From an uncultured Clostridia bacterium (GTDB lineage Bacteria > Bacillota > Clostridia > TANB77 > CAG-508), in NCBI GenBank assembly GCA_934120315.1, contig CAKOTX010000002.1, forward strand, positions 19,185 to 83,184: 64,000 bases of DNA, read 5' to 3'. Numbering within the stretch: position 1 is the stretch's first letter; each line of letters starts with the position of its first letter. Below are positions 1,399-62,484 of this stretch, in pieces. Both the position numbers and the translations under genes were made by a program. The notes under the pieces are model-generated. The model had not been told where the DNA came from. It was given only the letters and a program-made list of their open reading frames with translations, and ran no database searches.

Positions 1399-1529
1399 GA
1401 AAATTGAAAAAATATATATGAAAATCATTAACTCAAGTTTTATAAAATAAAAAGATAATTTTGCAAATAAAATAAGCAAAGAAAAAATTAAAATGGTAAA
1501 TTATATTTGTACACAAGATAAGTTGTGAG

Positions 1530-2150
1530 GTGATAAATGTGATAGATAAGTTCTGTGCATATTTAACCAATAAAATTCGAAAAGAAATGCCTGAAATAGA
1601 TGACGAACGAGCGGAAATAATAATGTATGGACTACAAAACTTAATAGGAGAGTTACCAAAAGGAATAATAATTTTGATAATTGCGTATTTCTTAGGAATA
1701 TTTAAACTAACATTAATATCAATGTTTATAATTGCACCATATAGATGCTTCTCTGGTGGAGTACATATGAAAACACATATGGGATGTATTATATATACAT
1801 TAATTTTGTATAGTGGTTCAGCGTTATTAGGAAAGTATATTGTTTTATCAGGGATGATGAAATATTTGCTTGCGTGTTTAGTTTGGAGTTTTAGCATTAT
1901 AATGATAAAATTATATGCTCCAGCAGATACAGAAAATGTTCCGATTCTTAGCAAAAAAGAAAGAAAACAAAAACAATTATTTTCATATATTGTTTTAACT
2001 CTAGAAATTATTATAGCAATAATGATTAATAATTCAACAATTGCTGGAATAATAATATTTGGAGATTTTATACAAACTTTAACAATAACAAGAATTGCAT
2101 ATAAAATTACGAAAAATAAATATGGACATGAAGTATATGCAAATATTTAA
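1530..2150 (+). CDS. agrB: accessory gene regulator B (AgrB) membrane peptidase that processes the AgrD propeptide
   Basis: About 200-aa polytopic membrane protein with the AgrB catalytic His/Cys region (YRCFSGGVHMKTHMGC). Immediately followed by an agrD-like peptide gene. GTG start per track; an alternative GTG lies at 1539. Confidence 0.85.
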   Translation: MINVIDKFCAYLTNKIRKEMPEIDDERAEIIMYGLQNLIGELPKGIIILIIAYFLGIFKLTLISMFIIAPYRCFSGGVHMKTHMGCIIYTLILYSGSALLGKYIVLSGMMKYLLACLVWSFSIIMIKLYAPADTENVPILSKKERKQKQLFSYIVLTLEIIIAIMINNSTIAGIIIFGDFIQTLTITRIAYKITKNKYGHEVYANI

Positions 2151-2221
2151 TTAGATAATGTAGGAGTTTTTTGCAACTACTCCTGTATTATAATTCTTTA
2201 CAAAAGAAGGGGGAATTAATT

Positions 2222-2341
2222 ATGATGAAATTCTTAGCAAAAATTGCAGAAAAATATGCAAAAGCTACAAATACAGCATGTGCAGCTTTATGGTGGGGAC
2301 ATCAACCCAAAATGCCAGCATCATTAATTAAAAAAGATTAA
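2222..2341 (+). CDS. agrD: AgrD-like autoinducing peptide precursor (39 aa, MMKFLAKIAEKYAKATNTACAALWWGHQPKMPASLIKKD)
   Basis: Not in the ORF track (under 60 aa). AAGGGGG RBS 8 nt upstream. C-x6-HQP-x2-P-x-SL pattern resembles clostridial AgrD. Sits 71 nt downstream of agrB. Confidence 0.75.
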   Translation: MMKFLAKIAEKYAKATNTACAALWWGHQPKMPASLIKKD

Positions 2342-2384
2342 TTCTTGAAGAGAAAATGTTCTTAAACATTAAAATCAATTCAAA

Positions 2385-2415
2385 GAAAAGAACTTCTATA
2401 TGAAGTTCTTTTTTG
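2385..2415. terminator. bidirectional terminator between agrBD and the convergent kinase gene
   Basis: AAAGAACTTC-tatat-GAAGTTCTTT perfect stem with an A-run on one side and a T-run on the other. Confidence 0.7.
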
Positions 2416-2457
2416 CGGGGAAATATAAAGAAAAAGAAGTAGAAAACTACTTCTTAA

Positions 2458-3828
2458 TTATAAATCATATACAGATAATTCTTGTTTGAAGAAATGTTCA
2501 TCTTTACTAGTAAATAAATCTAAGTTATTGCTTTTTCTTACATAATTGCGAATTTCCCATAAGCCAATACCAAAGTGATTTTCTTTACCAGATTCACCTT
2601 TTTGAAATATTTTTTCAATATCAACATTTTTATTTCTATATGTGTTTTTTACAGTTATTACAGCTCTATTATTTTTGTTTTCTCTTAAGAATGATACTTT
2701 TACTATTTTTTCATCACATTTTTCAGCTTCTTCTATAGCATTGTCGAGTAAAATTCCAATTGCTCTAGAAAATTTGTACATATTAACATTTAATGTATCA
2801 AGATTTAGAAAAAATTCTAGATCAAAAGTAATACCAAGGTTGGCGGCTTTAAAATATTTATTGTTTAATAAACTATATATCCCAGGATTATTTATGATAT
2901 GAGGATTTACTAAAGATAAATTATTAGTTATTTTACAATCAGCTTTTATTTCTTTAAAGTAACGTTTTAATCCAGGCATATCATTATTTTCTATAAATCC
3001 ATCTAATGTTGAAACAATATTATCAAAATCATGTTTATAACCTTTTACTTTATCATATAAGATTTCTAGTGATTTTGTATAGTCTTCAGCACATTCTAGA
3101 CTTTTTGTTGTGTTAGCAAGTTTAATTATACGAAAAAAACTATGACAACTTAATGTTAGAAAGGCTACCAGCAGTATGAAATTAAGAATACTAATGGTAA
3201 GAGGAACTATATTTATATAAAATGCTGTTGTTATTAATTGTGTACATATTGTGACAAAACCAGTAAATATATTTATTATTAATAATCGAGATGTACTTTT
3301 ATCTAATGCATCAAGTTGAGATAAATCAAAATTTAATTTTTTGAATTTTTTTAACTGTTTTATTGTAATAATTACTACAAACATGCAAAAGTATAGGATT
3401 GAAAGGTATAAAACTCTATATATAGGAGTGCTTATAAATACATTAGAATTTATATTAAAAATAGTTAAATATGTATTTTGTAATAAAGTATTTAATAACC
3501 CAAATATGAAACTAGGCACAAAAAGCGAAAATAAACTTTTTACAATGTTAAGTTTAAATAATTTGTATATTAATATAAGAATACAAGTATAATTTAAAAT
3601 AACATTAAAAGGAGATTGTATGTAAGCTTGACTAATAATACTTACAATAGAATTTATTACAACATAAATAGATTTTTCTTTAGTAGAAGCATTTACATTA
3701 AATAAATTTAGGAAAACTTGCATAAATAGATAATGCTCAATGAAAGTTGCTGGTATTAGCAATATATTAACAAGTTCTATGTTTTGACTGTTTAAAGCAT
3801 TCCAAATATTACTTAAAAATTGTATCAT
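2458..3828 (-). CDS. AgrC/VirS-type (HPK10) membrane sensor histidine kinase
   Basis: Hydrophobic N-terminal half with several predicted TM helices. C-terminal GHKL ATPase (ILLDNAIEEA N-box, HFGIGLWEI G-box). Forms an operon with a LytTR regulator. Confidence 0.8.
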   Translation of the reverse strand: MIQFLSNIWNALNSQNIELVNILLIPATFIEHYLFMQVFLNLFNVNASTKEKSIYVVINSIVSIISQAYIQSPFNVILNYTCILILIYKLFKLNIVKSLFSLFVPSFIFGLLNTLLQNTYLTIFNINSNVFISTPIYRVLYLSILYFCMFVVIITIKQLKKFKKLNFDLSQLDALDKSTSRLLIINIFTGFVTICTQLITTAFYINIVPLTISILNFILLVAFLTLSCHSFFRIIKLANTTKSLECAEDYTKSLEILYDKVKGYKHDFDNIVSTLDGFIENNDMPGLKRYFKEIKADCKITNNLSLVNPHIINNPGIYSLLNNKYFKAANLGITFDLEFFLNLDTLNVNMYKFSRAIGILLDNAIEEAEKCDEKIVKVSFLRENKNNRAVITVKNTYRNKNVDIEKIFQKGESGKENHFGIGLWEIRNYVRKSNNLDLFTSKDEHFFKQELSVYDL

Positions 3829-4528
3829 AATTAACTACCTCCATAAAGTGATTTTTATATTTTGGACCAATATAGCAAACTTCATTGTTTTTAAATGTTA
3901 TTGAATTATTTGAAAAAGATATATTGACAATATTATCTATATTGGCAATGAATGATTTGTGACATCTTACGAAATTTCGCGGCAAGTTGTTTTCGATTTT
4001 AGAGAATGAACTATAAGTATCAAAATTTCCTCTTGGTGTATGATATATAAGTTTCATTCCATATTTTTCAATAAATTGAATTTCGTTAAAATCAATAAAA
4101 GTTCCTTTACTATCAATTTTAAAAAATTTTTTTGTTGTTCCTGAAACATCTTCAAAAAGCCTTGTTAAAGTATTCGAAAGAGATCCAACGCTTATAGAAT
4201 TCTTGAATAGATATGCAAAAGTTTTACAGTCATAGGCTTCCATTAAGTATTCAAAGTGGCTTGTAATAAAAATAATATAACAGTTTTTATTAACTTTTCG
4301 AATTTCTCTAGCAATGTCTAATCCATTTAAATTAGAATTTTTGAACTCAATATCTAAAACAATTACATCTACAATATTAGAGTCCATAAAAGAGATTACT
4401 TCTTTATAGTCAGAAGTTTTCAAAACGATTTGAGCATCAAAATCATTTTTAACAAAAGTTTTTTCAAACAAAATAGAAAGTTTGTTAAGCATATTGTTTT
4501 CGTCATCACAAAGTACAAAATTCATCAT
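3809..4528 (-). CDS. LytTR-family response regulator (AgrA-like)
   Basis: N-terminal REC domain (VLCDDE...VLDIEF...D) and C-terminal LytTR DNA-binding domain. Its 3' end overlaps the kinase gene by 20 nt. Confidence 0.85.
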   Translation of the reverse strand: MMNFVLCDDENNMLNKLSILFEKTFVKNDFDAQIVLKTSDYKEVISFMDSNIVDVIVLDIEFKNSNLNGLDIAREIRKVNKNCYIIFITSHFEYLMEAYDCKTFAYLFKNSISVGSLSNTLTRLFEDVSGTTKKFFKIDSKGTFIDFNEIQFIEKYGMKLIYHTPRGNFDTYSSFSKIENNLPRNFVRCHKSFIANIDNIVNISFSNNSITFKNNEVCYIGPKYKNHFMEVVNYDTIFK

Positions 4529-4796
4529 ATGTATTCCTCCATTCTACATTAATTTACATTTTTTTCAAAAAACATAGAATTAATATAAATCAAAAATTTG
4601 AACTTGTCAATAGGCTTTATGTAGATATGAAAAAAATTGTATACTATGATATGAGTGCTTTTCCAATTTATTAAATTCAAATGAAAAATATAAGAGAAAA
4701 AATAAAATATCCTAAAAAAAATATACAATTGTAAAAAAATGTATGTAAAATAATGTTACAAAAATATTACTTTTTTATGACATTTATGTTATTTTG

Positions 4797-4825
4797 TTGA
4801 AATGAATACTAGATAAAAGTATAAT
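4797..4825 (+). promoter_or_regulatory. sigma-A type promoter for the protease gene (TTGAAA-17-TATAAT)
   Basis: -35 at 4797-4802, 17-nt spacer, -10 at 4820-4825. Lies about 30 nt upstream of the RBS. Confidence 0.5.
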
Positions 4826-4857
4826 AAAATCGAAGTAGTATATTATAGGAGACACAT

Positions 4858-7800
4858 ATGAAAAGAAAATTAAAAAAAGCATTTCTTCTAATGTTTTTAT
4901 TAATAATGATTTCAATTCCAATATATGCAAAAGAAATAGATGCTGAAGTTGTTGGAGTGGAAAAGTCTAAGGCATTTGAAGAATGGGAAAATTTAGATGA
5001 AAAAGATAGAACAAATAGTATAGAACCATCTTATTATAGTGTTGATATAAAAGACAGTATAAAAAGATCTGTGTATAATAGTTTATTGGATACTAATGAT
5101 ACAATAAGCAAAAGTTATGACTTAAGAAATGAAATAAATAATATAAAAGTTAAGAATCAGAAAAAGGTAGGAGCATGTTGGGCATTTTCTTTTACATCAA
5201 TGCTAGAAACAACTTTGGCACATAAATATAATATTACCCAAAGAGAATATTCACCAATGCACATTGAATATACATGTGCAAGACTTTATAATAGAATTCT
5301 TGGAGGTAATGGAACAAGACTAATGTCACTTGCCTATGCAACAGGAGGATATGGACCAGTCTATGAAAGCGATTTTTCATTTGAAAGTGTATATGATGAA
5401 AAAAATAATGATGCATCACAATATTATTTAACAGATTTAGATAATGTAAATTTAGAACAAAAAGTTAGAGCAAGAGTTACAGATTCTATTATATTTGCTA
5501 ATATAAGTAAAAAATATGATACTAATGGTGAAGTTACATATAACAATTCACAAGATACTTCTAAGACATATTCAAAAGAAGAAGTTGAAGTAATAAGAAA
5601 ATTAATAAAAAATCAAATAAAAGAAAATGGAGCTGTATCTGCAATTTTTTATTCAGATATTGGAGTTACATCTAATAGAGTATATATAAGTGCTAATAAT
5701 TATTATAATTCACAAACAAAAGCTTTTTATTGTGATAATGGTACAATACAAGCCAATCATGCTGTTACAATAGTTGGGTGGGATGACACATATTCGAAAG
5801 AAAATTTTCCGCAAAATCATCAACCAATAAATGATGGGGCATATATTGTATTAAATTCTTGGGGAGAAGAATTTGGAGAAAGTGGATATTTTTATGTATC
5901 ATATGATGATAGTTGTATTGAAAGAGAAATATCAGCAATTAAAGAGATAAAAACATATAATAATGAGATGAATGAAAATGTTTATCAATATGATGAACTT
6001 GGAGTAAGCTATGGAATATCTTTAACTGGGGCTAATGGAAAATATTTAACATCTGTAGAAGCAGCAAATGTTTTTGATAGAAAAGATACTAGTAAAAAAG
6101 AGTATTTAACAGAAGTTGGAATAGGATTAATGTCAACTGAGGGAATAGAAATTTATGTAAATTCACAAGACGGTGATGTTAAAAACGCTAATACATTAGT
6201 TGCGACAGCTACAGGAACAAATGCCTTAGAAAGTGGATATCATTCTTTAAAATTAGCAAATTCAATTGAACTAACAGGAGAAAAATTTGTAATAAAAGTT
6301 AAATATATAAATGAAGAATTCCCAATTATACCACTAGAAATGAATATGGAAGCAAATGGTATAATTACTAAAACATCAAGTTTTTATAATAGTGCAACTT
6401 CAAACAAAGGTGAAAGTTATATATTACGTAAAGGAACGACATGGACTGATATTACAGATATGTCAATGGGTGGTAAAAAAATAAAAAATACTAATGCATG
6501 TATAAAAGGATTTTCAATAGTTCAAGATGAAACACCAACAATTAATGTAGAAGAAATAAGAGTGAATAAAACTAATGAAAAAATATTTGTAGGAGAAAGT
6601 TTTACATTAACAGCAACAGTATTACCAGAGAATGCAACTAACAAAGACATAAAATGGGTAAGCTCAGATGAACAAATTGCAATTGTAGAAAACGGAGTTG
6701 TAAAAGGAATAAAAGCAGGAATAGCTACAATAAAGGCAATATCAAGTGATGAAAATAAAATAGCAGAATGTCAAGTTACAGTAAAAAAACAAGAGGTAAA
6801 TGTTACAGAAATTAAGATAGTACCAGCTTCAGGAAAAATAATAGAAGGAGGAAAATTAAGTTTGTCAGCCAAAATACTTCCTGAAAATACTACAAATAAA
6901 AATATAAAATGGAGTAGTTCTAATATTAATGTTGCAACAGTAAAAGATGGAATTGTAACTGCAATTTCTGCTGGAACTGCAACGATAACAGCAATATCAG
7001 AAGATGGAGCTAAATATGGAACATCAGAAATAACAGTTGAGAAAAAAGAAGAAAATCCTAAAGTAAGTGTAGATAGTGTAAAATTAACATTACAAAAAAC
7101 AAAAATAAAAATTGGAGACAAAACAACACTTCAGGCTGTTGTAGAACCAGAAAATGCAACTAATAAAAAAATAAAATGGATAAGTTCAAATCCAGAGGTA
7201 GCAACAGTAAAAGATGGGATTGTAACTGCAATTTCTGCTGGGACTGCACAGATAAGTGTAACAACAGAAGATGGTAATAAAACTGCAACATGTGAGGTCA
7301 TAGTCGAAAAAGTAATAAATGTATCAGAAATTGAAATTTCTTATAATACTAAAACAATAAATACTGGTGAAAGATTTAATCTAGACGCCAAAATAACTCC
7401 GCAAAATGCAACTAATAAAAAAATAATATGGACAAGTTCAAATATAAGTGTAGCAACGGTAAAAAATGGCGAAGTTATTGGAGTTTCAAACGGAACGGCT
7501 TTAATTACAGCAACAACAGAAGATGGAAACAAAACAGCAACATGTTTAGTAACAGTAAAGAATAGTAATGATGTAAGTGTTAAAGGAATAGAATTAGATA
7601 AAAAAGAAATATCAATGCAAATAAATGATCAGACAAATTTAGTTGCGACAATAAAACCTTATAATGCAACTAATAAAGAAGTGAAATGGGAAAGCTCAGA
7701 TGAAAACATTGCAGTTGTATCAAAAGATGGAATTATAACAGCAGTTTCAGAAGGGACAGCAACAATAAAAGTAACTGCAATAGATGGAAAATATACAGAG

Positions 7801-8037
7801 ACATGTAAGGTTACAGTAAATCCTAAGACAAATACAGCAGATGATATTTATAAAGAGCAAGAATCAGGTTCAGAATTTATAAAAAATGAATCAGGAGTTT
7901 CAAAAGATACTACAGTTTCAAATAAAAATATTCCATATGCTGGAGAGGCAATTAGAATAATAATTAGCATATTTATTGGAGCAATAATTGTAGGAATAAT
8001 ATTAAAGAGGTGTATAGACCTAAAAGATATAAAATAG
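4858..8037 (+). CDS. secreted papain-like (C1 family) cysteine protease with six Big_2 Ig-like repeats and a C-terminal membrane anchor
   Basis: Signal peptide present. Catalytic Cys motif QKKVGACWAFS, His motif NHAVTIVGWDD and the NSWGEEFGESGYFYVSYDD segment. Repeated Big_2-like units of roughly 90 aa (...ATIKAISSDENKIAECQVTV...). Terminal hydrophobic helix followed by KR. Confidence 0.8.
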   Translation: MKRKLKKAFLLMFLLIMISIPIYAKEIDAEVVGVEKSKAFEEWENLDEKDRTNSIEPSYYSVDIKDSIKRSVYNSLLDTNDTISKSYDLRNEINNIKVKNQKKVGACWAFSFTSMLETTLAHKYNITQREYSPMHIEYTCARLYNRILGGNGTRLMSLAYATGGYGPVYESDFSFESVYDEKNNDASQYYLTDLDNVNLEQKVRARVTDSIIFANISKKYDTNGEVTYNNSQDTSKTYSKEEVEVIRKLIKNQIKENGAVSAIFYSDIGVTSNRVYISANNYYNSQTKAFYCDNGTIQANHAVTIVGWDDTYSKENFPQNHQPINDGAYIVLNSWGEEFGESGYFYVSYDDSCIEREISAIKEIKTYNNEMNENVYQYDELGVSYGISLTGANGKYLTSVEAANVFDRKDTSKKEYLTEVGIGLMSTEGIEIYVNSQDGDVKNANTLVATATGTNALESGYHSLKLANSIELTGEKFVIKVKYINEEFPIIPLEMNMEANGIITKTSSFYNSATSNKGESYILRKGTTWTDITDMSMGGKKIKNTNACIKGFSIVQDETPTINVEEIRVNKTNEKIFVGESFTLTATVLPENATNKDIKWVSSDEQIAIVENGVVKGIKAGIATIKAISSDENKIAECQVTVKKQEVNVTEIKIVPASGKIIEGGKLSLSAKILPENTTNKNIKWSSSNINVATVKDGIVTAISAGTATITAISEDGAKYGTSEITVEKKEENPKVSVDSVKLTLQKTKIKIGDKTTLQAVVEPENATNKKIKWISSNPEVATVKDGIVTAISAGTAQISVTTEDGNKTATCEVIVEKVINVSEIEISYNTKTINTGERFNLDAKITPQNATNKKIIWTSSNISVATVKNGEVIGVSNGTALITATTEDGNKTATCLVTVKNSNDVSVKGIELDKKEISMQINDQTNLVATIKPYNATNKEVKWESSDENIAVVSKDGIITAVSEGTATIKVTAIDGKYTETCKVTVNPKTNTADDIYKEQESGSEFIKNESGVSKDTTVSNKNIPYAGEAIRIIISIFIGAIIVGIILKRCIDLKDIK

Positions 8038-8128: not shown

Positions 8129-8920
8129 ATGAAAGAAAAGAAAACAACGATTATAATATCAGTAATGATAATTGCAATATTTACTATTAGTATATTAGCA
8201 ATGAATGAAAGTGTAATTACTACAAGTGCAAGAGATAGCAAAACAATTGGCTGGGGAATAAAAAGAGCAAATAATAATTTACAACCAGATGTTGGGCAAG
8301 AAAATAGAAAAATGCTAGAAGAAAATGGTGGAATATGTTTAGGAAAAGATACAGAGAAAATAATATATTTGACTTTTGATGAAGGATATGAGGCTGGTTA
8401 TACAGAAAAAATTTTAAATGTATTAAAAGAAAATGAAGTAAAAGCAACTTTCTTTATTACGTCACATTATTTAAATACTGCATCAGAATTAGTTGAAAGA
8501 ATGATAACAGAAGGACATATTGTGGGAAATCATACATGTTCACATCCAAGTTTGCCAAGCAAGACAAATGATGAAATAGAAAGTGAATTAATGAAATTGC
8601 ATAAAGCAGTGTTTGAAAAATTTAATTATGAAATGAAATATATGCGTCCTCCCAAAGGAGAGTTTAATGAGAGGACATTAAAAAAGACACAAGAATTAGG
8701 ATATAAAACTGTTATGTGGAGTTTTGCATATTTTGATTGGGATGAGAAAAAACAACCATCAGTTGAAGAAAGCAAAAAAATAATTATTAATAATTTACAT
8801 TGTGGAGAAATCATGTTATTACATCCAAATTCAAAAACAAATTCACAAGTTTTAGAAGATGTTATAAAAGAAGCAAAAAAACAAGGGTATGAATTTAAAA
8901 CATTAGATGAATTTAAATAG
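8129..8920 (+). CDS. pdaA: polysaccharide deacetylase (NodB domain), PdaA-like sporulation cortex delta-lactam deacetylase
   Basis: NodB motifs TFDEGY (motif 1) and HTCSHP (motif 2). N-terminal TM/signal segment. Located next to yqfCD. Confidence 0.75.
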   Translation: MKEKKTTIIISVMIIAIFTISILAMNESVITTSARDSKTIGWGIKRANNNLQPDVGQENRKMLEENGGICLGKDTEKIIYLTFDEGYEAGYTEKILNVLKENEVKATFFITSHYLNTASELVERMITEGHIVGNHTCSHPSLPSKTNDEIESELMKLHKAVFEKFNYEMKYMRPPKGEFNERTLKKTQELGYKTVMWSFAYFDWDEKKQPSVEESKKIIINNLHCGEIMLLHPNSKTNSQVLEDVIKEAKKQGYEFKTLDEFK

Positions 8921-8932
8921 TGGGAGGAAAAG

Positions 8933-9196
8933 ATGAGAAAAAGAATAGATAAAATATTAGAAATGCCAGCAGAAGTATGTACAAATGCTCCAAAGCTTAC
9001 AATTATTGGCTTTGATGAAGTAATACTTGAAAATTATAAAGGAATATTGGAATATGAAGAATTTTTTGCAAGTATAAGCACATATGCAGGAGTGGTAAAC
9101 ATAAACGGATTTAATTTGAATCTCGAGAAAATGACAAATGATGATATAAAAATTACAGGAAAAATCGAAAATATAGAATTAGAAAGGACACAATAA
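8933..9196 (+). CDS. yqfC: sporulation protein YqfC (YabP family)
   Basis: About 87 aa with the YabP/YqfC-like sequence. Translationally coupled to yqfD. Confidence 0.8.
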   Translation: MRKRIDKILEMPAEVCTNAPKLTIIGFDEVILENYKGILEYEEFFASISTYAGVVNINGFNLNLEKMTNDDIKITGKIENIELERTQ

Positions 9197-10339
9197 ATGT
9201 TCATTAAAGTTATAATGAAATATCTGCTAGGTTATATTAGAATAACAGTAGAAGGTTATTACATAGAGCGATTTATAAATATCTGTACTGCTAATAAAAT
9301 ATTGATATGGAATTTAAAAAGAGAAAAAGGAGTTAAATTACATTTAAATATAGGGATAGAAGACTTTTACAGAGCAGTACCAGTAGCAAAAAAATTAAAA
9401 TGCAGAATAAAAATAGAGAAAAAGAGGGGAATACCATTTATTGTAAACAAGTATCGAAAGAGAAAAGCTTTTATAGTTTCTTTAATAATAATAGCGATTT
9501 TGTTATATGCAAGTTCACTTTTTGTTTGGAACATAGAAATTCAGGTGGAAGATAATTTAAAATTAGATAAAATAGAGGAGGATGTACAAGAAGCAGGATT
9601 AGAAACAGGAATGAAAAAAGACAAAATAAATGTAGAAGAAATAGTAAATAAAATACGTTTAAAAAGAGATGATATTTCATGGATAGGAATTAGTCTAAAA
9701 GGAACAAATGCAATAGTAAAAGTAGTAAAAGCAAAAGAGGCCCCAGAAATAATAGACGAAAAAGAGGCAACTAATATTGTAGCAAAAAAAGCTGGAACAA
9801 TAACAGAAATAATAGCACAAAATGGAATGTCACAAGTTAAAAATGGAGATGAAGTACAAGAAGGTCAAATATTAATTCAAGGAATAATGGAAGGAAAATA
9901 TACAGGACAAAGATATGTGCATAGTTTGGGTGAGATAAAAGCTATAGTTAAATATACTAAAACGGAAAAAATGCAATTAAAAGAAGAACAAAATGTAAAA
10001 ACAGGCAATAAAGAAACGAAATATGGTATAAAATTTAATAATTTTCAAATAAATTTTTACAAAACTCTTTCCAAATTTAAAATTTATGATACAATAGTAG
10101 AAGAAAAAAAGTTTAGGATATTTTCAAACTTATATTTACCAATTTCCGTAAAGAAAATTACGAATGAAGAATTGGAAAAAAATTCAAAAAAATACACAAT
10201 CGAAGAAGCAACTGCAATCTTAACCCAAAAGTTAGAAGAACAACTTGAATCTGAAGTAAATAATAAGCAAGATATACTTCGGAAGAAATGCAGATGTAAC
10301 AAAGGGAGAAGATTTCATAGAAGTAAGTGTAACATATGA
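9197..10339 (+). CDS. yqfD: sporulation protein YqfD (stage IV); C-terminus appears frameshifted, with a more plausible ending in the +1 frame to about 10391
   Basis: Typical yqfC-yqfD pairing. The last 25 aa in the track frame are Arg/Cys-rich nonsense (RKKCRCNKGRRFHRSKCNI). The +1 frame reads GRNADVTKGEDFIEVSVTYEVIENIGMQEKIIDKIN. Confidence 0.75.
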   Translation: MFIKVIMKYLLGYIRITVEGYYIERFINICTANKILIWNLKREKGVKLHLNIGIEDFYRAVPVAKKLKCRIKIEKKRGIPFIVNKYRKRKAFIVSLIIIAILLYASSLFVWNIEIQVEDNLKLDKIEEDVQEAGLETGMKKDKINVEEIVNKIRLKRDDISWIGISLKGTNAIVKVVKAKEAPEIIDEKEATNIVAKKAGTITEIIAQNGMSQVKNGDEVQEGQILIQGIMEGKYTGQRYVHSLGEIKAIVKYTKTEKMQLKEEQNVKTGNKETKYGIKFNNFQINFYKTLSKFKIYDTIVEEKKFRIFSNLYLPISVKKITNEELEKNSKKYTIEEATAILTQKLEEQLESEVNNKQDILRKKCRCNKGRRFHRSKCNI

Positions 10340-21656: not shown

Positions 21657-23582
21657 TTAATATAATTCATTTTCAGAAATATTTGTATTATTTCCAGTAT
21701 CTTTGTTTCCATTGTTAATTCCCATATATGGTAAAATCTCAGAAAGCATTTTTCCAGCAGTTGGTGCTGCAATTTGTCCACCATTGTGGTTAACACCTTC
21801 ACCAGGTGATTTTAAAATTACAAGTAAAACAATTTGTGTATTTTCAACAGGAGATATTGCTAAGAATGAAGCAGTATATCCATCTTTTGAACCATTTATA
21901 GGTTCTGAAGTTCCTGTTTTACCACCAATAGAATATCCAGACATTTTTGCAGTAAATTCTGCATCATCTTTGTTATATTTTACTTTATATCCAGTACCAT
22001 TTTCTACAACAGATTCCATCATAGTAGCTACTTTATCAGCAGTACTTTTTGAAATTACTTGACGAACTTCTTGAGTTGAGAAAGTTGTAACTTCTCCAGT
22101 ATCAGTATTAGTAATTTTATCTACAATTTGTGGTTGAACTAAAACACCATCATTAGCTATTGCAGATGCAGCTGTTATCATTTGAAGAGGTGTAATAGTG
22201 AAACGTTGTCCGAAAGACATTGTTCCAAGTTCGTGGTCATTTATTTTATTTATATCATAGAAAATTCCTGATGATGGTTCTCCAGAAATTGAGATTCCAG
22301 TTTTTCCGAAAAATCCATATGCTTCATAATATTTGTAAGTAATATTTTTTCCGATTTTGATACCTAATTCAACAAAAACAGGGTTACAAGAATTTTCTAA
22401 GGCATTTGTTAAACTTTGTGCACCATGAGAATTTGGATATTTAAAACATTTTATAGGTCTTGATTCGCCAGGAACTGTTATAGAACCATTACAATTATAT
22501 ACAACAGAGCTTGTATCTGCGAACTTTTCTTCTAATGCTATAGAAGATGTAATTATTTTAAATACAGATCCAGGTTCATAAGTATCTGTAATAGCTTTAG
22601 GTGTCCACATTTTGTATAATTCTTTGTTTTTATCTTCACTTGATAGGCTATCCCATATTTGAGATAGATGTGAATTTGGAGTATTTTTATCATTGCAATC
22701 AAAGCTTGGATAATCTGCCATTGCTAATATTTTTCCATTAGTTGGATTCATAGCAATTGTAATTCCGCTTTCACATTTATATTCTTCTACAGCTTCTGAA
22801 AGATATTTTTCTACAATGCTTTGAATATTTGAATCTATTGTTAAAGTTAAATCATAACCATTTTCAGCAGCAATATAAGATTTGTTAGAATTTGCAATTT
22901 CAGATTGACTTGCATCTTTTAAACTAACAGATTTTCCTGCAGTACCACTAAGAAATGAATTCCAAGAACGTTCAATTCCCATAGAACCTTGATTGTCTGC
23001 ACCGACAAAACCAATAACAGTAGAAGCTAAAGTTTTATTTGGATAAGAACGAGAAGTAGTTTCTTCAAAAGTGATTCCAGTTTTCATTTTTAAATCTTTA
23101 TTACAAGTTTCTATCCATTTATTTATAGTATCAACTTTTTCTTGATTTACATCAGAAGCTATAAGAACTCTACTTGATGAAGAATTTAGTTTTTCTAAAA
23201 GTTCATTATAATCTAATTCAAGAGTAGTGGCTAAATATTGAGCAATATAAGATTTATTTTCAGCTTTAATATCTTTTGGAGTAATATAAACTTTATCTGT
23301 TTCATAGCTAATAGCAAGTGTTTTTCCCTTGGCATCATAAATTGTACCACGTTTAGCAGAAATTGTTTCTGTTAAAGTTTGTTGAGATGTAGCTAGATTT
23401 TGTAATCTACTTCCATCAATAAATTGAATGTATCCAACTCTAAAAATAAGGACAAGCATTATAACAATTATAAAGCATGTTACAACAACAAGTCTTATAG
23501 GTTTTATTGTATTTGGAACATTTATATCATTTGTTATATTAACTGATTTTCTTTTTGTTTTTCTATTTTTTTTCTTATTCAT
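21657..23582 (-). CDS. class B penicillin-binding protein / peptidoglycan D,D-transpeptidase (FtsI/SpoVD family)
   Basis: N-terminal TM anchor. Transpeptidase motifs SVFK (SxxK), SCN (SxN) and KTGT. Confidence 0.88.
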   Translation of the reverse strand: MNKKKNRKTKRKSVNITNDINVPNTIKPIRLVVVTCFIIVIMLVLIFRVGYIQFIDGSRLQNLATSQQTLTETISAKRGTIYDAKGKTLAISYETDKVYITPKDIKAENKSYIAQYLATTLELDYNELLEKLNSSSSRVLIASDVNQEKVDTINKWIETCNKDLKMKTGITFEETTSRSYPNKTLASTVIGFVGADNQGSMGIERSWNSFLSGTAGKSVSLKDASQSEIANSNKSYIAAENGYDLTLTIDSNIQSIVEKYLSEAVEEYKCESGITIAMNPTNGKILAMADYPSFDCNDKNTPNSHLSQIWDSLSSEDKNKELYKMWTPKAITDTYEPGSVFKIITSSIALEEKFADTSSVVYNCNGSITVPGESRPIKCFKYPNSHGAQSLTNALENSCNPVFVELGIKIGKNITYKYYEAYGFFGKTGISISGEPSSGIFYDINKINDHELGTMSFGQRFTITPLQMITAASAIANDGVLVQPQIVDKITNTDTGEVTTFSTQEVRQVISKSTADKVATMMESVVENGTGYKVKYNKDDAEFTAKMSGYSIGGKTGTSEPINGSKDGYTASFLAISPVENTQIVLLVILKSPGEGVNHNGGQIAAPTAGKMLSEILPYMGINNGNKDTGNNTNISENELY

Positions 23583-23691
23583 AAATTCACCATTCTTTTG
23601 TTAAAATTTAAATATATTTTATAATAAAAGGTTATAAAAATCAATAAAAAAATTAAATAATCTAAATGAGATTAATAGAGGAGGATAAAAC

Positions 23692-25218
23692 ATGTTATCA
23701 AAAGTAAAATCAATAACTTTGAGTGGTCTTGATGGAAACTTAGTTGAAATTCAAACAGATATAAGTAATGGTATACCAGAATTTGATATAGTTGGTTTAC
23801 CAGATACAACTGTTAAAGAAGCTAAAAAAAGAATAAAATCAGCAATAAATAATTCGGGTATAGAATTTCCAAATAAAAAAATATTGATAAACTTGGCACC
23901 TGCCAATATAAAAAAAGAAGGAAGTAGTTTTGATTTAGCAATGGCAATTGGAATACTAATTGCAAAAGATTGCATTCCAAATATAGATGTAAATAAATTA
24001 GTTAATACAATATTCATAGGTGAACTTTCTTTAGATGGAAAAATAAATAGAACTAATGGAGTATTACCAATGTGTATTGAAGCAAAAGAGCTTGGAATAA
24101 AAACTGTAATATTACCAGTTTCTAATGCAAATGAAGCTGCAATTATTTCTGAACTTAATATTATTCCAGTTTCTGATTTAAAAGAAGTTATTTATTATTT
24201 AAACAGAGAAAAAATAATAGAAAGTTTTATTGCCAAACGCAATTGTGTTAAAGAAAAATATCAAGTTGATTTTTCAGATGTAAAAGGACAAGAAAATGTA
24301 AAGAGAGCATTAGAAATAGCAGCTGCTGGAGGACACAACTGTTTGATGGTTGGTGGGCCTGGAGCAGGCAAAACAATGCTCGCAAAAAGGTTAACAACTA
24401 TTTTGCCAGAGTTAACAAAAGAAGAGGCAATGGAAGTTACTAAAATTCATAGTATAGCAGGGGAGTTAAAAAGGGATGGTTTGATTACAAATAGACCATT
24501 TAGAATGCCACATCATACAGTACCAATTAGTACAATGATAGGTGGTGGAAAAACTCCTAAGCCAGGCGAAATAAGTTTGGCACATTGTGGAATTTTGTTT
24601 TTAGATGAATTGCCCGAATTTAATAGAAATATTTTAGAATCTTTAAGAGAACCACTAGAAAATCGAGAGATTATAATAAATAGGTTAAGTGGAAATTATA
24701 GATATCCATGTAATTTTATGTTTGTTGCTAGTATGAATCCATGTCCATGTGGAAATTATGGTGATGAAGAAAAAGAATGTAAATGTACAGAAAAAGAAAT
24801 ACATAGATATTTAAATAAAATTAGTGGACCATTATTAGACAGAATTGATATTCAGGTTGAAGTAAAAAGATCAAAAATAGAAAATATTAGTTCAAAAAGT
24901 AAAGTTGAAACTTCAGAAGAAGTTCGTGTAAGAGTTGACAAAGCTAGACAGATTCAATTAGAAAGATATAAAAAATATGGGATTTATTCTAATTCTGAAT
25001 TAAATTCCAATATGATTAGTGAATTTTGTCAAATAGATGAAGAGGGAGAAAAGCTGTTAAAAAGTGCTTTTCAAAAACTAAAATTAAGTATGAGAGCATA
25101 TCAAAGAATTTTAAAAGTAGCTAGAACAATTGCGGATTTAGAAGAAAGCAAAAAAATAAAAATTCAACATTTGGCTGAAGCAATACAATATAGAAGTTTA
25201 GATAAATTTATTAAATAG
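23692..25218 (+). CDS. YifB/ComM family Mg-chelatase-like AAA+ ATPase
   Basis: Lon-like N-domain. Walker A GGPGAGKT. Cys cluster C-x2-C-x-C...C. ChlI-like C-terminus. Confidence 0.9.
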   Translation: MLSKVKSITLSGLDGNLVEIQTDISNGIPEFDIVGLPDTTVKEAKKRIKSAINNSGIEFPNKKILINLAPANIKKEGSSFDLAMAIGILIAKDCIPNIDVNKLVNTIFIGELSLDGKINRTNGVLPMCIEAKELGIKTVILPVSNANEAAIISELNIIPVSDLKEVIYYLNREKIIESFIAKRNCVKEKYQVDFSDVKGQENVKRALEIAAAGGHNCLMVGGPGAGKTMLAKRLTTILPELTKEEAMEVTKIHSIAGELKRDGLITNRPFRMPHHTVPISTMIGGGKTPKPGEISLAHCGILFLDELPEFNRNILESLREPLENREIIINRLSGNYRYPCNFMFVASMNPCPCGNYGDEEKECKCTEKEIHRYLNKISGPLLDRIDIQVEVKRSKIENISSKSKVETSEEVRVRVDKARQIQLERYKKYGIYSNSELNSNMISEFCQIDEEGEKLLKSAFQKLKLSMRAYQRILKVARTIADLEESKKIKIQHLAEAIQYRSLDKFIK

Positions 25219-39848: not shown

Positions 39849-40763
39849 ATGAAAAGAATAATAGGGGTTAGATTTAAGAGATTAGGAAAAATATATTTTT
39901 TTGATCCAAAATGGTTAGAAGTAAAAAAAGGCGAAAGCGTAATAGTTGAAACAGCTCAAGGCGAAGAAATAGCAGAAGTAGTGGTACCAAATAGAATGAT
40001 AGAAGAAGAAAAAGTAGTAGCACCTTTGAAAAAAGTGCTTAGACTTGCATCTCCTAGAGATATAAAACATGCAGAAGAATGTAAGAAAAAAGAAAAAGAA
40101 GCATTTGAGTTATGCAACAAGAAAATTAAAGAACATAATTTACAAATGACATTAACAGATGTTGAATATAAATTTGACAATAGTAAGATTTTATTTTACT
40201 TTACAGCAGATGGAAGAGTAGATTTTAGAGATTTAGTAAAAGATTTAGCTGCAATTTATAAAACAAGAATAGAATTAAGACAAATAGGTGTAAGAGATGA
40301 AGTAAAAAGAATTGGTGGAAATGGAGTATGTGGTAGAGAATTATGCTGTTGCTCATTTTTAAGTGATTTTGAAACTGTATCAATAAAAATGGCAAAAGAA
40401 CAAAATATATCATTAAATCCATCAAAAATTTCAGGAAATTGTGGAAGATTAATGTGTTGCTTGAAATATGAACAAGAAGTTTATGAAGAAAAACTAAAAA
40501 AATTACCTAATATTGGAGCAATTGTAAAAACACCAGATGGCAAAGGCGAAGTAGAGGGACTTGAAACTTTAAAAGAAACAGTAAAAGTAAGAATAAAAGA
40601 TGGCGAAATATTTAAAATAAAGAAATATGATGCTAAAGATATTACTGTATTAAAAGATGTTGCAAAAGAACAATCTGATACAGAAGAAAAAGAATATCAA
40701 AAAGAACTTAAAGAATTAGAAAATTTAGAAAAAGAAGATTCGAAAATAAAGAATAATAATTAA
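39849..40763 (+). CDS. yaaT: PSP1-domain stage 0 sporulation protein YaaT/RicT
   Basis: PSP1 C-terminal domain with Cys clusters (CGRELCCCSF, CGRLMCC). Confidence 0.85.
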   Translation: MKRIIGVRFKRLGKIYFFDPKWLEVKKGESVIVETAQGEEIAEVVVPNRMIEEEKVVAPLKKVLRLASPRDIKHAEECKKKEKEAFELCNKKIKEHNLQMTLTDVEYKFDNSKILFYFTADGRVDFRDLVKDLAAIYKTRIELRQIGVRDEVKRIGGNGVCGRELCCCSFLSDFETVSIKMAKEQNISLNPSKISGNCGRLMCCLKYEQEVYEEKLKKLPNIGAIVKTPDGKGEVEGLETLKETVKVRIKDGEIFKIKKYDAKDITVLKDVAKEQSDTEEKEYQKELKELENLEKEDSKIKNNN

Positions 40764-61204: not shown

Positions 61205-61360
61205 ATAAATTATCAAGAGTGGAGTAGAGAACGGCTCGTTAATCCCACAGCAACCTATCGATAGACAAGGTGCTAAAACCGGCAAAGCATTGGCTTTGAG
61301 TGATGATTGAATAAAAGTGAACTCTTAGCATATGCTGGGGGTTTATTTTTATTATATAGG
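61205..61360 (+). promoter_or_regulatory. SAM-I (S-box) riboswitch leader of metK
   Basis: P1 5'-AAUUAUC...GAUGAUU-3'. S-box-like AUCAAGAG-UGGAG...GCAACC and AAGGUGCUAAAACC elements. T-rich tract before the RBS. Confidence 0.6.
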
Positions 61361-61371
61361 AGGAAACAAAA

Positions 61372-62484
61372 ATGAAAAAATATTATTTTACATCTGAAAG
61401 TGTAACTGAAGGACATCCAGATAAATTATGTGATTATATTTCGGATACAATATTAGATGAAGCATTAAAACAAGACAGATATTCAAGAGTGGCAGTAGAA
61501 ACATTTGCATCTGCAAATCAAATAACAATTGCAGGACAATTAACAACAAATGCTAAATTAGATATAGAAAAAATAGTTAGAAATAGAATTAAAGAAATTG
61601 GTTATGATGATGCCAAATTAGATATAGATTATAGAACTTGCAAAATAGATATTAATATAACAAAACAGAGTTCAGATATAGCACAAGGTGTAGATATTGG
61701 AGGTGCTGGAGATCAAGGAATTATGTTCGGATATGCTTCTGACGAAACAGAAGAATATATGCCTTTTGCAATATCAATGGCACATAAGTTAGCTAGAAGA
61801 TTAACAGTTGTGCGTAAAATGGGAATATTACCATATCTAAGACCAGATGGAAAGACACAAGTAACTGTTGAATATGAAGGAGATAAAGTAAAAAGAATTG
61901 ATACTATATTGATTTCTACACAACATAATGCAAATGTTGATATGGATGCATTAATTACAGATATTAAAGATAAAGTAATAAATGCAGTAATACCTGAAAA
62001 ATATTTGGATGAAAATACAAAATATTATATTAATCCAACAGGAAGATTTGTAATTGGAGGACCTTTAGGGGATACAGGATTAACTGGAAGAAAAATTATA
62101 GTAGACACATATGGTGGCTATGCACGTCATGGCGGAGGAGCTTTTTCTGGAAAAGATGCTACAAAAGTAGATAGGAGTGCTGCATATATGTTACGTCATA
62201 TTGCTAAAAACGTTGTAGCAAATGGATATGCAAAAAAATGTGAATTACAAGTTGCATATGCAATTGGTGTAGAACAACCAATGTCAATATTTGTAGATAC
62301 ATTTGGAACAAATACAATTCCAGAAGACGAGATAGAAGAAATCATTAAAAGAAATTTTGATTTGACACCAAAAGGAATTATAGAATATTTAGGTTTACGT
62401 GAACCAATATTTACAAAAACAACAAATTATGGACATTTTGGAAAGCCAGAATTACCATGGGAAAAAATTATCGAATTAAAGTAA
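61372..62484 (+). CDS. metK: S-adenosylmethionine synthetase
   Basis: GHPDKLCD and GAGDQG signatures. Confidence 0.95.

Follow-up and report, generated by a model that had tools for sequence, protein, structure and literature searches.

Introduction

Quorum sensing through autoinducing peptides (AIPs) of the agr type is well understood in pathogens but has hardly been studied in uncultured gut commensals. The closest described systems are agrBDCA of Staphylococcus aureus, the agr loci of Clostridium acetobutylicum, Clostridioides difficile and Clostridium perfringens, and fsrBDCA of Enterococcus faecalis. The AIP macrocycles described so far contain five (the common size), six or nine residues (PMC12312760, PMC8251862, PMC10301443), and the nine-membered ring of E. 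faecalis GBAP is the largest. Here we describe an agr-type locus in a stretch of 64,000 nucleotides (the window, to which all positions refer) from an uncultured Clostridia bacterium of the lineage TANB77; CAG-508 (assembly GCA_934120315.1, contig CAKOTX010000002.1, positions 19,185 to 83,184 of the forward strand). An earlier sequence-only reading of this DNA had proposed a complete agr-like locus with a genuine AgrD, and this was borne out, as all four genes were found at the places it had given and each has family matches. The evidence argues strongly that the locus is a complete, functional four-component agr-type autoinducing-peptide circuit of an uncultured low-GC gut Clostridia lineage. 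It is an ordinary agr-type module of a well-known kind, apart from a probable signal ring of seven residues where five is usual.

The locus encodes the same four protein families as agrBDCA of S. aureus, with the Arg, His and Cys catalytic residues of AgrB. Further shared features are a LytTR regulator whose direct repeats are spaced by about 21 bp and a hypervariable AgrD core and AgrC sensor that give rise to pherotypes. However, there is no single P2 operon in the window, the receptor genes are not driven by the box-containing promoter and the hypervariable segments are separated on the DNA.

In C. acetobutylicum, as here, agrBD and agrCA form separate transcription units, and its AIP, R6T0, is [CVLVTL] (PMC10301443, PMC8251862, PMC12312760). 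Both systems have a macrocycle above five residues (predicted in the present case) and probably no exocyclic tail. The follower of the C. acetobutylicum precursor is similar to YEPKMPEEL and thereby close to the HQPKMPASL found here. The present locus differs in that the two units are convergent, the regulator gene stands ahead of the kinase gene, six rather than five residues come after the Cys, no LanM-like effector gene is found downstream and the host is a small-genome, uncultured bacterium of the gut.

C. difficile AgrD1 and C. perfringens AgrD, with the macrocycles [CPWII] and [CLWFT], resemble the present AgrD in a follower that starts H-Q-P-K/E with a second Pro three residues on, and in a hydrophobic, Trp-containing core. 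There, however, four residues separate the Cys from HQP, as against six and rarely five here, and the C. difficile agr1 and C. perfringens loci have no linked kinase or regulator whereas the locus described here is complete. The leaders of the C. difficile and C. perfringens precursors are longer and more hydrophobic. The fsrBDCA/GBAP system of E. faecalis is likewise of the agr type, with a ring above five residues (nine in GBAP) and a secreted protease gene beside the locus. GBAP is a lactone formed via a Ser while the peptide here uses a Cys, and the protease gene beside the present locus is an insertion peculiar to the species and lacks canonical boxes. The organisation of the locus is closest to the C. 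acetobutylicum type and the follower sequence is closest to the C. difficile/C. perfringens type.

Results

Related loci

Related loci were collected by an AgrB-based scan taking one genome per species. This gave 80 loci, all from metagenome-assembled genomes of uncultured gut Clostridia, the hosts being human (Hadza, Nepal, Brazil), rabbit, goat, buffalo and chicken. The set includes Clostridium sp. CAG:440 and one closed 1.55-Mb chromosome, and the closest AgrB in it is 83% identical to that of the window. Most of the 80 loci keep the gene order methyltransferase, pseudouridine synthase, agrB, agrD, convergent agrC and agrA, polysaccharide deacetylase, and the convergent four-gene arrangement is retained in at least 65 related species-level genomes. 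All four genes are intact and under purifying selection. Conservation across the relatives was 0.91 and 0.83 for the flanking housekeeping proteins as against 0.74 for AgrB, 0.67 for AgrA and 0.62 for AgrC. In a few loci (L016, L018, L023 and L044) inserted genes push agrC and agrA 2–4 kb further from agrD.

agrD and agrB

The agrD open reading frame (ORF) at 2222–2341 on the plus strand lies 71 nt past agrB on the same strand, has a ribosome-binding site (RBS), AAGGGGGA, at 2207 and encodes MMKFLAKIAEKYAKATNTACAALWWGHQPKMPASLIKKD. The 39-residue precursor comprises a leader (residues 1–19), Cys20, the core AALWWG (21–26) and the follower HQPKMPASLIKKD (27–39). Against TIGR04223 the peptide scored 27.1 bits (curated cut-off 19, E 3.4e-6), residues 2–37 aligning with profile positions 4–38, and a Pfam search with AgrD gave no match. 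A homolog of 38 or 39 codons is present 55–95 nt past agrB in 80 of the 80 related loci. Codon-position entropy in the leader was 0.80 at position 3 and 0.14 at position 2, and in the follower 0.74 and 0.13. Given this pattern and the presence of the homolog in every locus, agrD is a real coding gene under purifying selection, far beyond chance. Its leader is amphipathic, with a hydrophobic moment of 0.59 that was attained by 0.6% of shuffles.

The sequence-only reading had picked out this small RBS-preceded ORF as AgrD and had suggested the TIGR04223 alignment, and the score above the cut-off and the homologs in the related loci uphold that identification. It had also called the gene unannotated, which is true only of the ORF track it worked from. 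Public protein collections, that of NCBI among them, already contain the identical 39-aa sequence, on 55 contigs, and gene calls for agrD exist in contigs of the same species from several cohorts, the Hadza included. A protein-family search, with a 56-aa TTG-extended form of the ORF as query, returned 1825 clusters at 90% identity, to some of which JGI gives the name 'cyclic lactone autoinducer peptide'. In the peptide's own 90%-identity cluster (P0001) an unrelated 1031-aa helicase-like protein (P0003) is listed as well, presumably a clustering artefact.

The agrB gene (1539–2150, plus strand) encodes a membrane cysteine peptidase/cyclase that matches Pfam PF04647 over 176 residues (E 6.4e-40). 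The protein is polytopic, with hydrophobic segments and the catalytic motif R72-x3-GG-x-H79-x6-C86. The reference residues in S. aureus AgrB are R70, H77 and C84 (PMC10196373), and R72, H79 and C86 correspond to these. A sequence search of AgrB against solved structures gave no match. Two GTG codons may be considered as the start. GTG 1530, the start proposed in the sequence-only reading, sits within the Shine-Dalgarno sequence GAGGTG (1527–1532) and would give a protein of 206 aa. GTG 1539 gives 203 aa, is kept across relatives and is used in public gene calls. The start is therefore most likely GTG 1539, so that the gene and its end stand as first proposed and its start moves.

Size of the peptide ring

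Per-position entropy was calculated from 66 unique 39-codon agrD genes of the loci. It was 1.6–2.9 bits at residues 21–26, exactly between Cys20 and His27, with Cys20 itself invariant. The follower positions gave 0 to 0.9 bits each, with 0 at HQP, and the leader was near 0 except at residues 2, 6, 8 and 15 (1.1–2.3 bits). Pooling the loci with the protein-search matches gave 155 distinct cores. Six residues come after the Cys, or the Ser that replaces it in 3 of the 155, in 152 cores, and five come after the Cys in the other 3. The canonical AgrD spacing of four residues from Cys to follower, which belongs to a five-membered ring, is thus replaced by six in AgrD of the window. The core positions are almost wholly hydrophobic or small, charged or polar residues occurring at 8 of 912 positions, every one of them K or R at Cys+1. 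In ten loci (L031, L035, L037, L039, L043, L049, L054, L059, L060 and L076) a second Cys replaces the Trp at Cys+4, as in CAIWCVV and CFMWCVL, so that either Cys might cyclise, or the two might form a disulfide.

The sequence of C. difficile AgrD1 reads ...ANSTCPWIIHQPK (PMC8534292). When this was compared with the listed macrocycle, [CPWII] was found to directly precede HQPK. In C. perfringens, too, HQP comes directly after the macrocycle. The sequence-only reading had held that the Cys and the downstream HQP...P.SL match clostridial AgrD propeptides. The follower HQPKMPASL does resemble them, but the spacing from Cys to HQP, six residues as against four, does not. Because of the follower homology and the entropy boundary between the core, which begins at Cys+1, and His27, AgrB most likely cuts before His27. 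The mature signal would then be the seven-membered macrocycle C-A-A-L-W-W-G (cyclic [M+H]+ 788.355), a reading that we favour with modest confidence. The TNTA that invariably stands before the Cys resembles a processing site more than a tail that would confer specificity. In other Clostridia, tail-free thiolactones rearrange to homodetic cyclopeptides (PMC8251862).

Some observations weigh against a ring of seven. No seven-membered AIP macrocycle is described in the searchable literature, and the size proposed here derives only from follower homology and conservation. The nearly invariant Trp at Cys+4 (126 of the 152 seven-residue cores) also fits a five-membered CxxxW ring, for which L. plantarum [CVGIW] offers the precedent of a C-terminal Trp. 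Such a CAALW ring (545.254), the thiolactone suggested in the sequence-only reading, would be made if AgrB cut after Trp24, with the conserved Trp as acyl donor and W-G as part of the discarded follower, and five-membered rings are by far the commonest (PMC12312760, PMC10301443). However, Cys+5 and Cys+6 have entropies of 2.1 and 2.9 bits, a variability like that of the rest of the core and well above the 0.9 bits or less of every true follower position, yet both are still confined to hydrophobic or small residues. In the shorter cores CMLWVL, CIFWVL and CFLWLL the Trp is at Cys+3 and at -3 from the His, keeping its register with HQP and not with the Cys, and the position of HQP directly after the macrocycle in C. 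difficile AgrD1 also speaks against a cut after Trp24. Since all six residues are hypervariable yet hydrophobic and the Trp of the short variants is in the HQP register, CAALWWG is the likelier signal and CAALW was considered rather improbable.

The same data bear on a six-membered CAALWW ring, in which Gly26 would be left in the follower. Six-membered, tail-free clostridial AIPs have been detected experimentally, [CVLVTL] in C. acetobutylicum and CWFWSY in R. cellulolyticum (PMC12312760, PMC8251862, PMC10301443), and Gly, which could serve as a linker, is the commonest residue at Cys+6 (52 of the 152 cores). Against this, Cys+6 is the most variable position of all, with 11 kinds of residue among the 152 pooled cores. 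Bulky residues are frequent there (F in 33, L in 20, M in 12 and W in 9) and would be unexpected in a linker, and the length variants shorten the core and not the junction. A ring of six was accordingly rated the least probable of the three, below five, itself well below the preferred seven. Neither the CAALWWG core nor any mention of the follower motif HQPKMP was found in the searchable literature, which agrees with the earlier suggestion that the peptide is likely to be a new AIP variant.

Kinase, regulator and matching of peptide and receptor

The two receptor genes are on the minus strand, convergent with agrBD. The agrA-like gene (3809–4528) encodes a response regulator of 239 aa with REC and LytTR domains (Response_reg, E 1.1e-11; LytTR, E 1.7e-19), whose closest solved relative is the DNA-binding (LytTR) domain of S. 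aureus AgrA (E 4e-8). It comes first in the operon and overlaps the start of the kinase gene by 20 nt. The agrC-like gene (2458–3828) encodes a sensor histidine kinase of the AgrC (HPK10) type, of 456 aa, with at least five hydrophobic segments in residues 1–225 (the sensor), the H-box KGYKH266DFDN and a GHKL ATPase domain (HATPase_c_5, E 4.4e-15), and its best NCBIfam match is AgrC (E 6.3e-33). The LytTR regulator and the AgrC-type kinase with multiple transmembrane (TM) segments that had been proposed on this strand were therefore both confirmed. At the level of sequence the two proteins are family-level relatives of the staphylococcal AgrC and AgrA and not orthologs.

The sensor half of AgrC is less conserved in the relatives (about 0.5) than the kinase half (0.65–0.8). 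The similarity of AgrD cores was compared with the identity of AgrC sensor and kinase regions in 1830 locus pairs, with 300 label permutations. Core similarity correlated with sensor identity when kinase identity was controlled (partial rho 0.25, reached in 0 of the 300 permutations) but not with kinase identity when sensor identity was controlled (rho 0.035). In pairs whose kinase regions are at least 90% identical, the sensors had an identity of 0.82 if the cores were similar and of 0.51 if they were dissimilar. The convergent arrangement places agrD beside the kinase-coding end of agrC and not beside the sensor end, so simple linkage would predict the opposite pattern. The covariation gives indirect but specific support to a kinase sensor matched to its cognate AgrD peptide and to pherotype diversification.

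It may be asked whether the kinase and regulator respond to some other signal, the neighbouring agrBD peptide acting elsewhere or being a decaying remnant. Some clostridia do have agrBD without agrCA and sense the peptide through unlinked systems (PMC12312760), and the 5-kb flank of agrBD yielded neither an agrC nor an agrA homolog in two of the related loci, L027 and L030. Such a separation is very hard to reconcile with a convergent four-gene layout kept across so many species, with genes that are all intact and under purifying selection, with a peptide core that covaries with the sensor domain and with conserved LytTR-type boxes in the agrBD promoter (below). It was regarded as very unlikely.

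The agrBD promoter and predicted regulator boxes

An intrinsic terminator of the upstream pseudouridine synthase gene was found at 1363–1395 on the plus strand (hairpin -13 kcal/mol, z -5.1, with a T run; inverted repeat 1365–1393). As this ends the upstream gene, agrBD would form a transcription unit of its own with its own promoter. The promoter has an extended -10 element, TGgTAAATT, at 1494–1502 (plus strand), which lies in the most conserved upstream columns, (A/G)TGATAAAT. No recognisable -35 is present, the sequence at that position being AAGCAA. A good extended -10 combined with an unrecognisable -35 fits an activator-dependent promoter.

Cross-species alignment revealed four conserved blocks upstream of agrB with the consensus TTTTAYRAAA and start-to-start distances of 21, 23 and 21 bp, and these blocks are conserved in about 78 related loci. 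In the window they correspond to four predicted AgrA (LytTR) boxes. R1 (TTTATGAAAAT, 1394–1404) and R2 (TATATGAAAAT, 1415–1425) are on the plus strand, 21 bp apart, and share the exact 9-mer TATGAAAAT. R3 (TTTTATAAAAT, 1438–1448) and R4 (TTTTGCAAATA, 1459–1469) are on the minus strand, again 21 bp apart. R3 fits TTTYRTAAAA, the reverse complement of the R1/R2 consensus, and R4 ends just upstream of the -35 position. A position weight matrix (PWM) of the box was built without the window's own sequence and was scanned over the 64 kb. R1 was the best single site (13.1 bits), R1 with R2 was the top pair (21.5 bits) and R3 with R4 on the minus strand was the second (21.0 bits). Under a strict test a pair of this kind was present in 35 of 81 loci, whereas shuffles averaged 10.7 such loci and peaked at 20. 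Most of the pairs lie at position -142 relative to the start codon.

A generic repeat finder gave no direct repeats in either promoter region of the locus, the boxes emerging from the cross-species alignment and a mismatch-tolerant scan. The predicted sites of the agrBD promoter have the direct-repeat pairs, about 9 bp long with a 12–13-bp spacer, that are taken to indicate an AgrA-type regulator. This classical LytTR arrangement implies that agrBD would be autoinduced. A search for LytTR repeats in the two promoter regions had been proposed in the sequence-only reading. The repeats are present at 1394–1469 ahead of agrB but no pair at canonical spacing was found in the other region, 4529–4857.

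Three further box-like sites at exact 21-bp steps (23574, 23595 and 23616; span 23574–23629, plus strand) were seen in the 110-bp gap between a penicillin-binding protein gene (21657–23582, minus strand) and a Mg-chelatase/ComM-like gene (23692–25218, plus strand). A pair from this group is the fourth distinct pair locus of the window, ranking behind both agrBD pairs and a pair at 40230 that lies within a gene. These sites may be a secondary target of the regulator or a chance occurrence in AT-rich DNA.

The agrA-agrC promoter and the terminators

The agrA-agrC operon has a near-consensus sigma-A promoter at 4582–4610 on the minus strand (TTGACA, 17 bp, TATATT; 11 of 12 matches), which tied with one other site as the best of the scanned region. 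It is conserved in related loci as (GCC)TATTGACA...TATATT, and no regulator box pair was found nearby. From a near-consensus, conserved promoter without boxes we infer that the receptor operon is constitutively expressed, feedback acting on signal production only. In many relatives (among them L003, L004, L007, L008, L011, L015 and L025) a perfect palindrome, TTGACA-N5/6-TGTCAA, stands just downstream of the agrA-agrC -10 and could be an operator or a hairpin of the 5' untranslated region. The window has a degenerate form of it (TTTGAAAAAAATGTAAA, about 4540–4575, minus strand).

Two hairpins separate the convergent units. One, at 2384–2414, has an A run on one side and a T run on the other (z -3.5 on the plus and -5.9 on the minus strand). 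It could terminate in both directions, ending agrBD and providing back-up termination for the minus-strand operon. The other, at 2434–2455 directly past the agrC stop, acts for the minus-strand operon alone (-10 kcal/mol, z -4.2, with UUUUUCUUU after it). Two hairpins thus take the place of the single shared bidirectional terminator proposed earlier.

Neighbouring genes and genomic setting

Beyond agrA, at 4858–8037 on the plus strand, lies a gene for a secreted or anchored cysteine protease of 1059 aa with a Peptidase_C1 domain, five Big_2 domains and a C-terminal TM segment. It is present in same-species contigs, placed between agrA and the polysaccharide deacetylase gene. No homolog was found beside agr in the 80 related loci, in which agrA is immediately followed by the deacetylase gene, and the protease gene is an insertion confined to this species. 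A near-consensus promoter of its own lies at 4797–4825. Upstream of the -35 are single box-like sites at 4739 (minus), 4754 (plus) and 4773 (plus), with spacings of 15 and 19 bp. Given its absence from the related loci and the non-canonical spacing of these single sites, agr regulation of the protease is not claimed; it is possible but finds no support in the sequence. The sequence-only reading had proposed following the expression of the adjacent protease and leucine-rich repeat (LRR) genes after deletion of the agr genes. The LRR/DUF285 gene lies 10 kb from the locus.

The deacetylase gene, yabP and yqfD (stage IV sporulation) come directly after the locus at 8129–10339 on the plus strand. 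The presence of yabP and yqfD there suggests that the organism is probably a spore former. Sporulation is under agr control in several Clostridia. The composition of the plus strand is strongly skewed (A 42%, T 28%, G 18%, C 11%; GC about 29%), and nearly all long ORFs of the window are on that strand, the agrA-agrC operon being among the few minus-strand units. RNAIII equivalents are absent from clostridia, according to an agr primer, and in the window no RNAIII or other regulatory RNA family reached the gathering score apart from a S-adenosylmethionine (SAM) riboswitch (RF00162, 72.4 bits, 61207–61309, plus strand) upstream of the ORF at 61372–62484. No tRNA genes were found in the window.

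Discussion

The above results can be brought together in a scheme for the circuit. The agrB and agrD genes would be transcribed from the extended -10, -35-less promoter behind two pairs of 21-bp-spaced TTTTAYRAAA boxes. The amphipathic leader would take AgrD to the membrane, where the catalytic His and Cys of AgrB would cut off the follower and cyclise the new C-terminus onto Cys20. With a follower starting at His27 this would give the seven-residue ring preferred above, and the leader would probably be cleaved at the invariant TNTA. A tail-free thiolactone of this kind would rearrange through an S-to-N acyl shift to a homodetic cyclopeptide, as in other Clostridia. The peptide would be sensed by the polytopic AgrC-like sensor, with which its core covaries, and the kinase would phosphorylate the LytTR regulator. 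Binding of the regulator to the four boxes would increase agrBD transcription, so that only the production of the signal would be under positive feedback. Across the lineage, peptide core and sensor domain have diversified together into many pherotypes.

Several points count against reading the locus as a functional circuit of this kind. The kinase scored 114.6 bits against the staphylococcal AgrC equivalog NF046015, far below its cut-off of 500, and the regulator 66.7 bits against the AgrA equivalog, far below its cut-off of 400. The box motif consists largely of A and T, the GC content of the genome is itself only about 29%, and the strict pair test was passed by only 35 of the 81 loci. No output genes of the circuit were identified in this analysis.

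Taken together, the observations lead to a broader proposal, which is advanced tentatively. Small-genome uncultured gut Clostridia of humans (including Hadza and Nepali cohorts), rabbits, goats and chickens may use a seven-membered, possibly homodetic-rearranging agr signal, a size undescribed for any AIP, with well over a hundred pherotypes. In these organisms the core and the sensor would be co-diversifying although their coding segments are not contiguous, and only signal production, not the receptor, would be autoinduced.

The concept of how agr works is unchanged by this locus. New to the literature are the predicted seven-residue macrocycle, which if true extends the known AIP ring sizes of five, six and nine, and the wide range of pherotypes within an uncultured gut lineage. 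Since cyclo(CAALWWG) and similar peptides can be synthesised and the promoter has defined boxes, receptor specificity would be testable without culturing. Throughout this lineage of uncultured gut bacteria a complete agr module is kept in conserved gene order, with a great many peptide variants, and this variety hints at strong signal interference between strains or between species in the gut.

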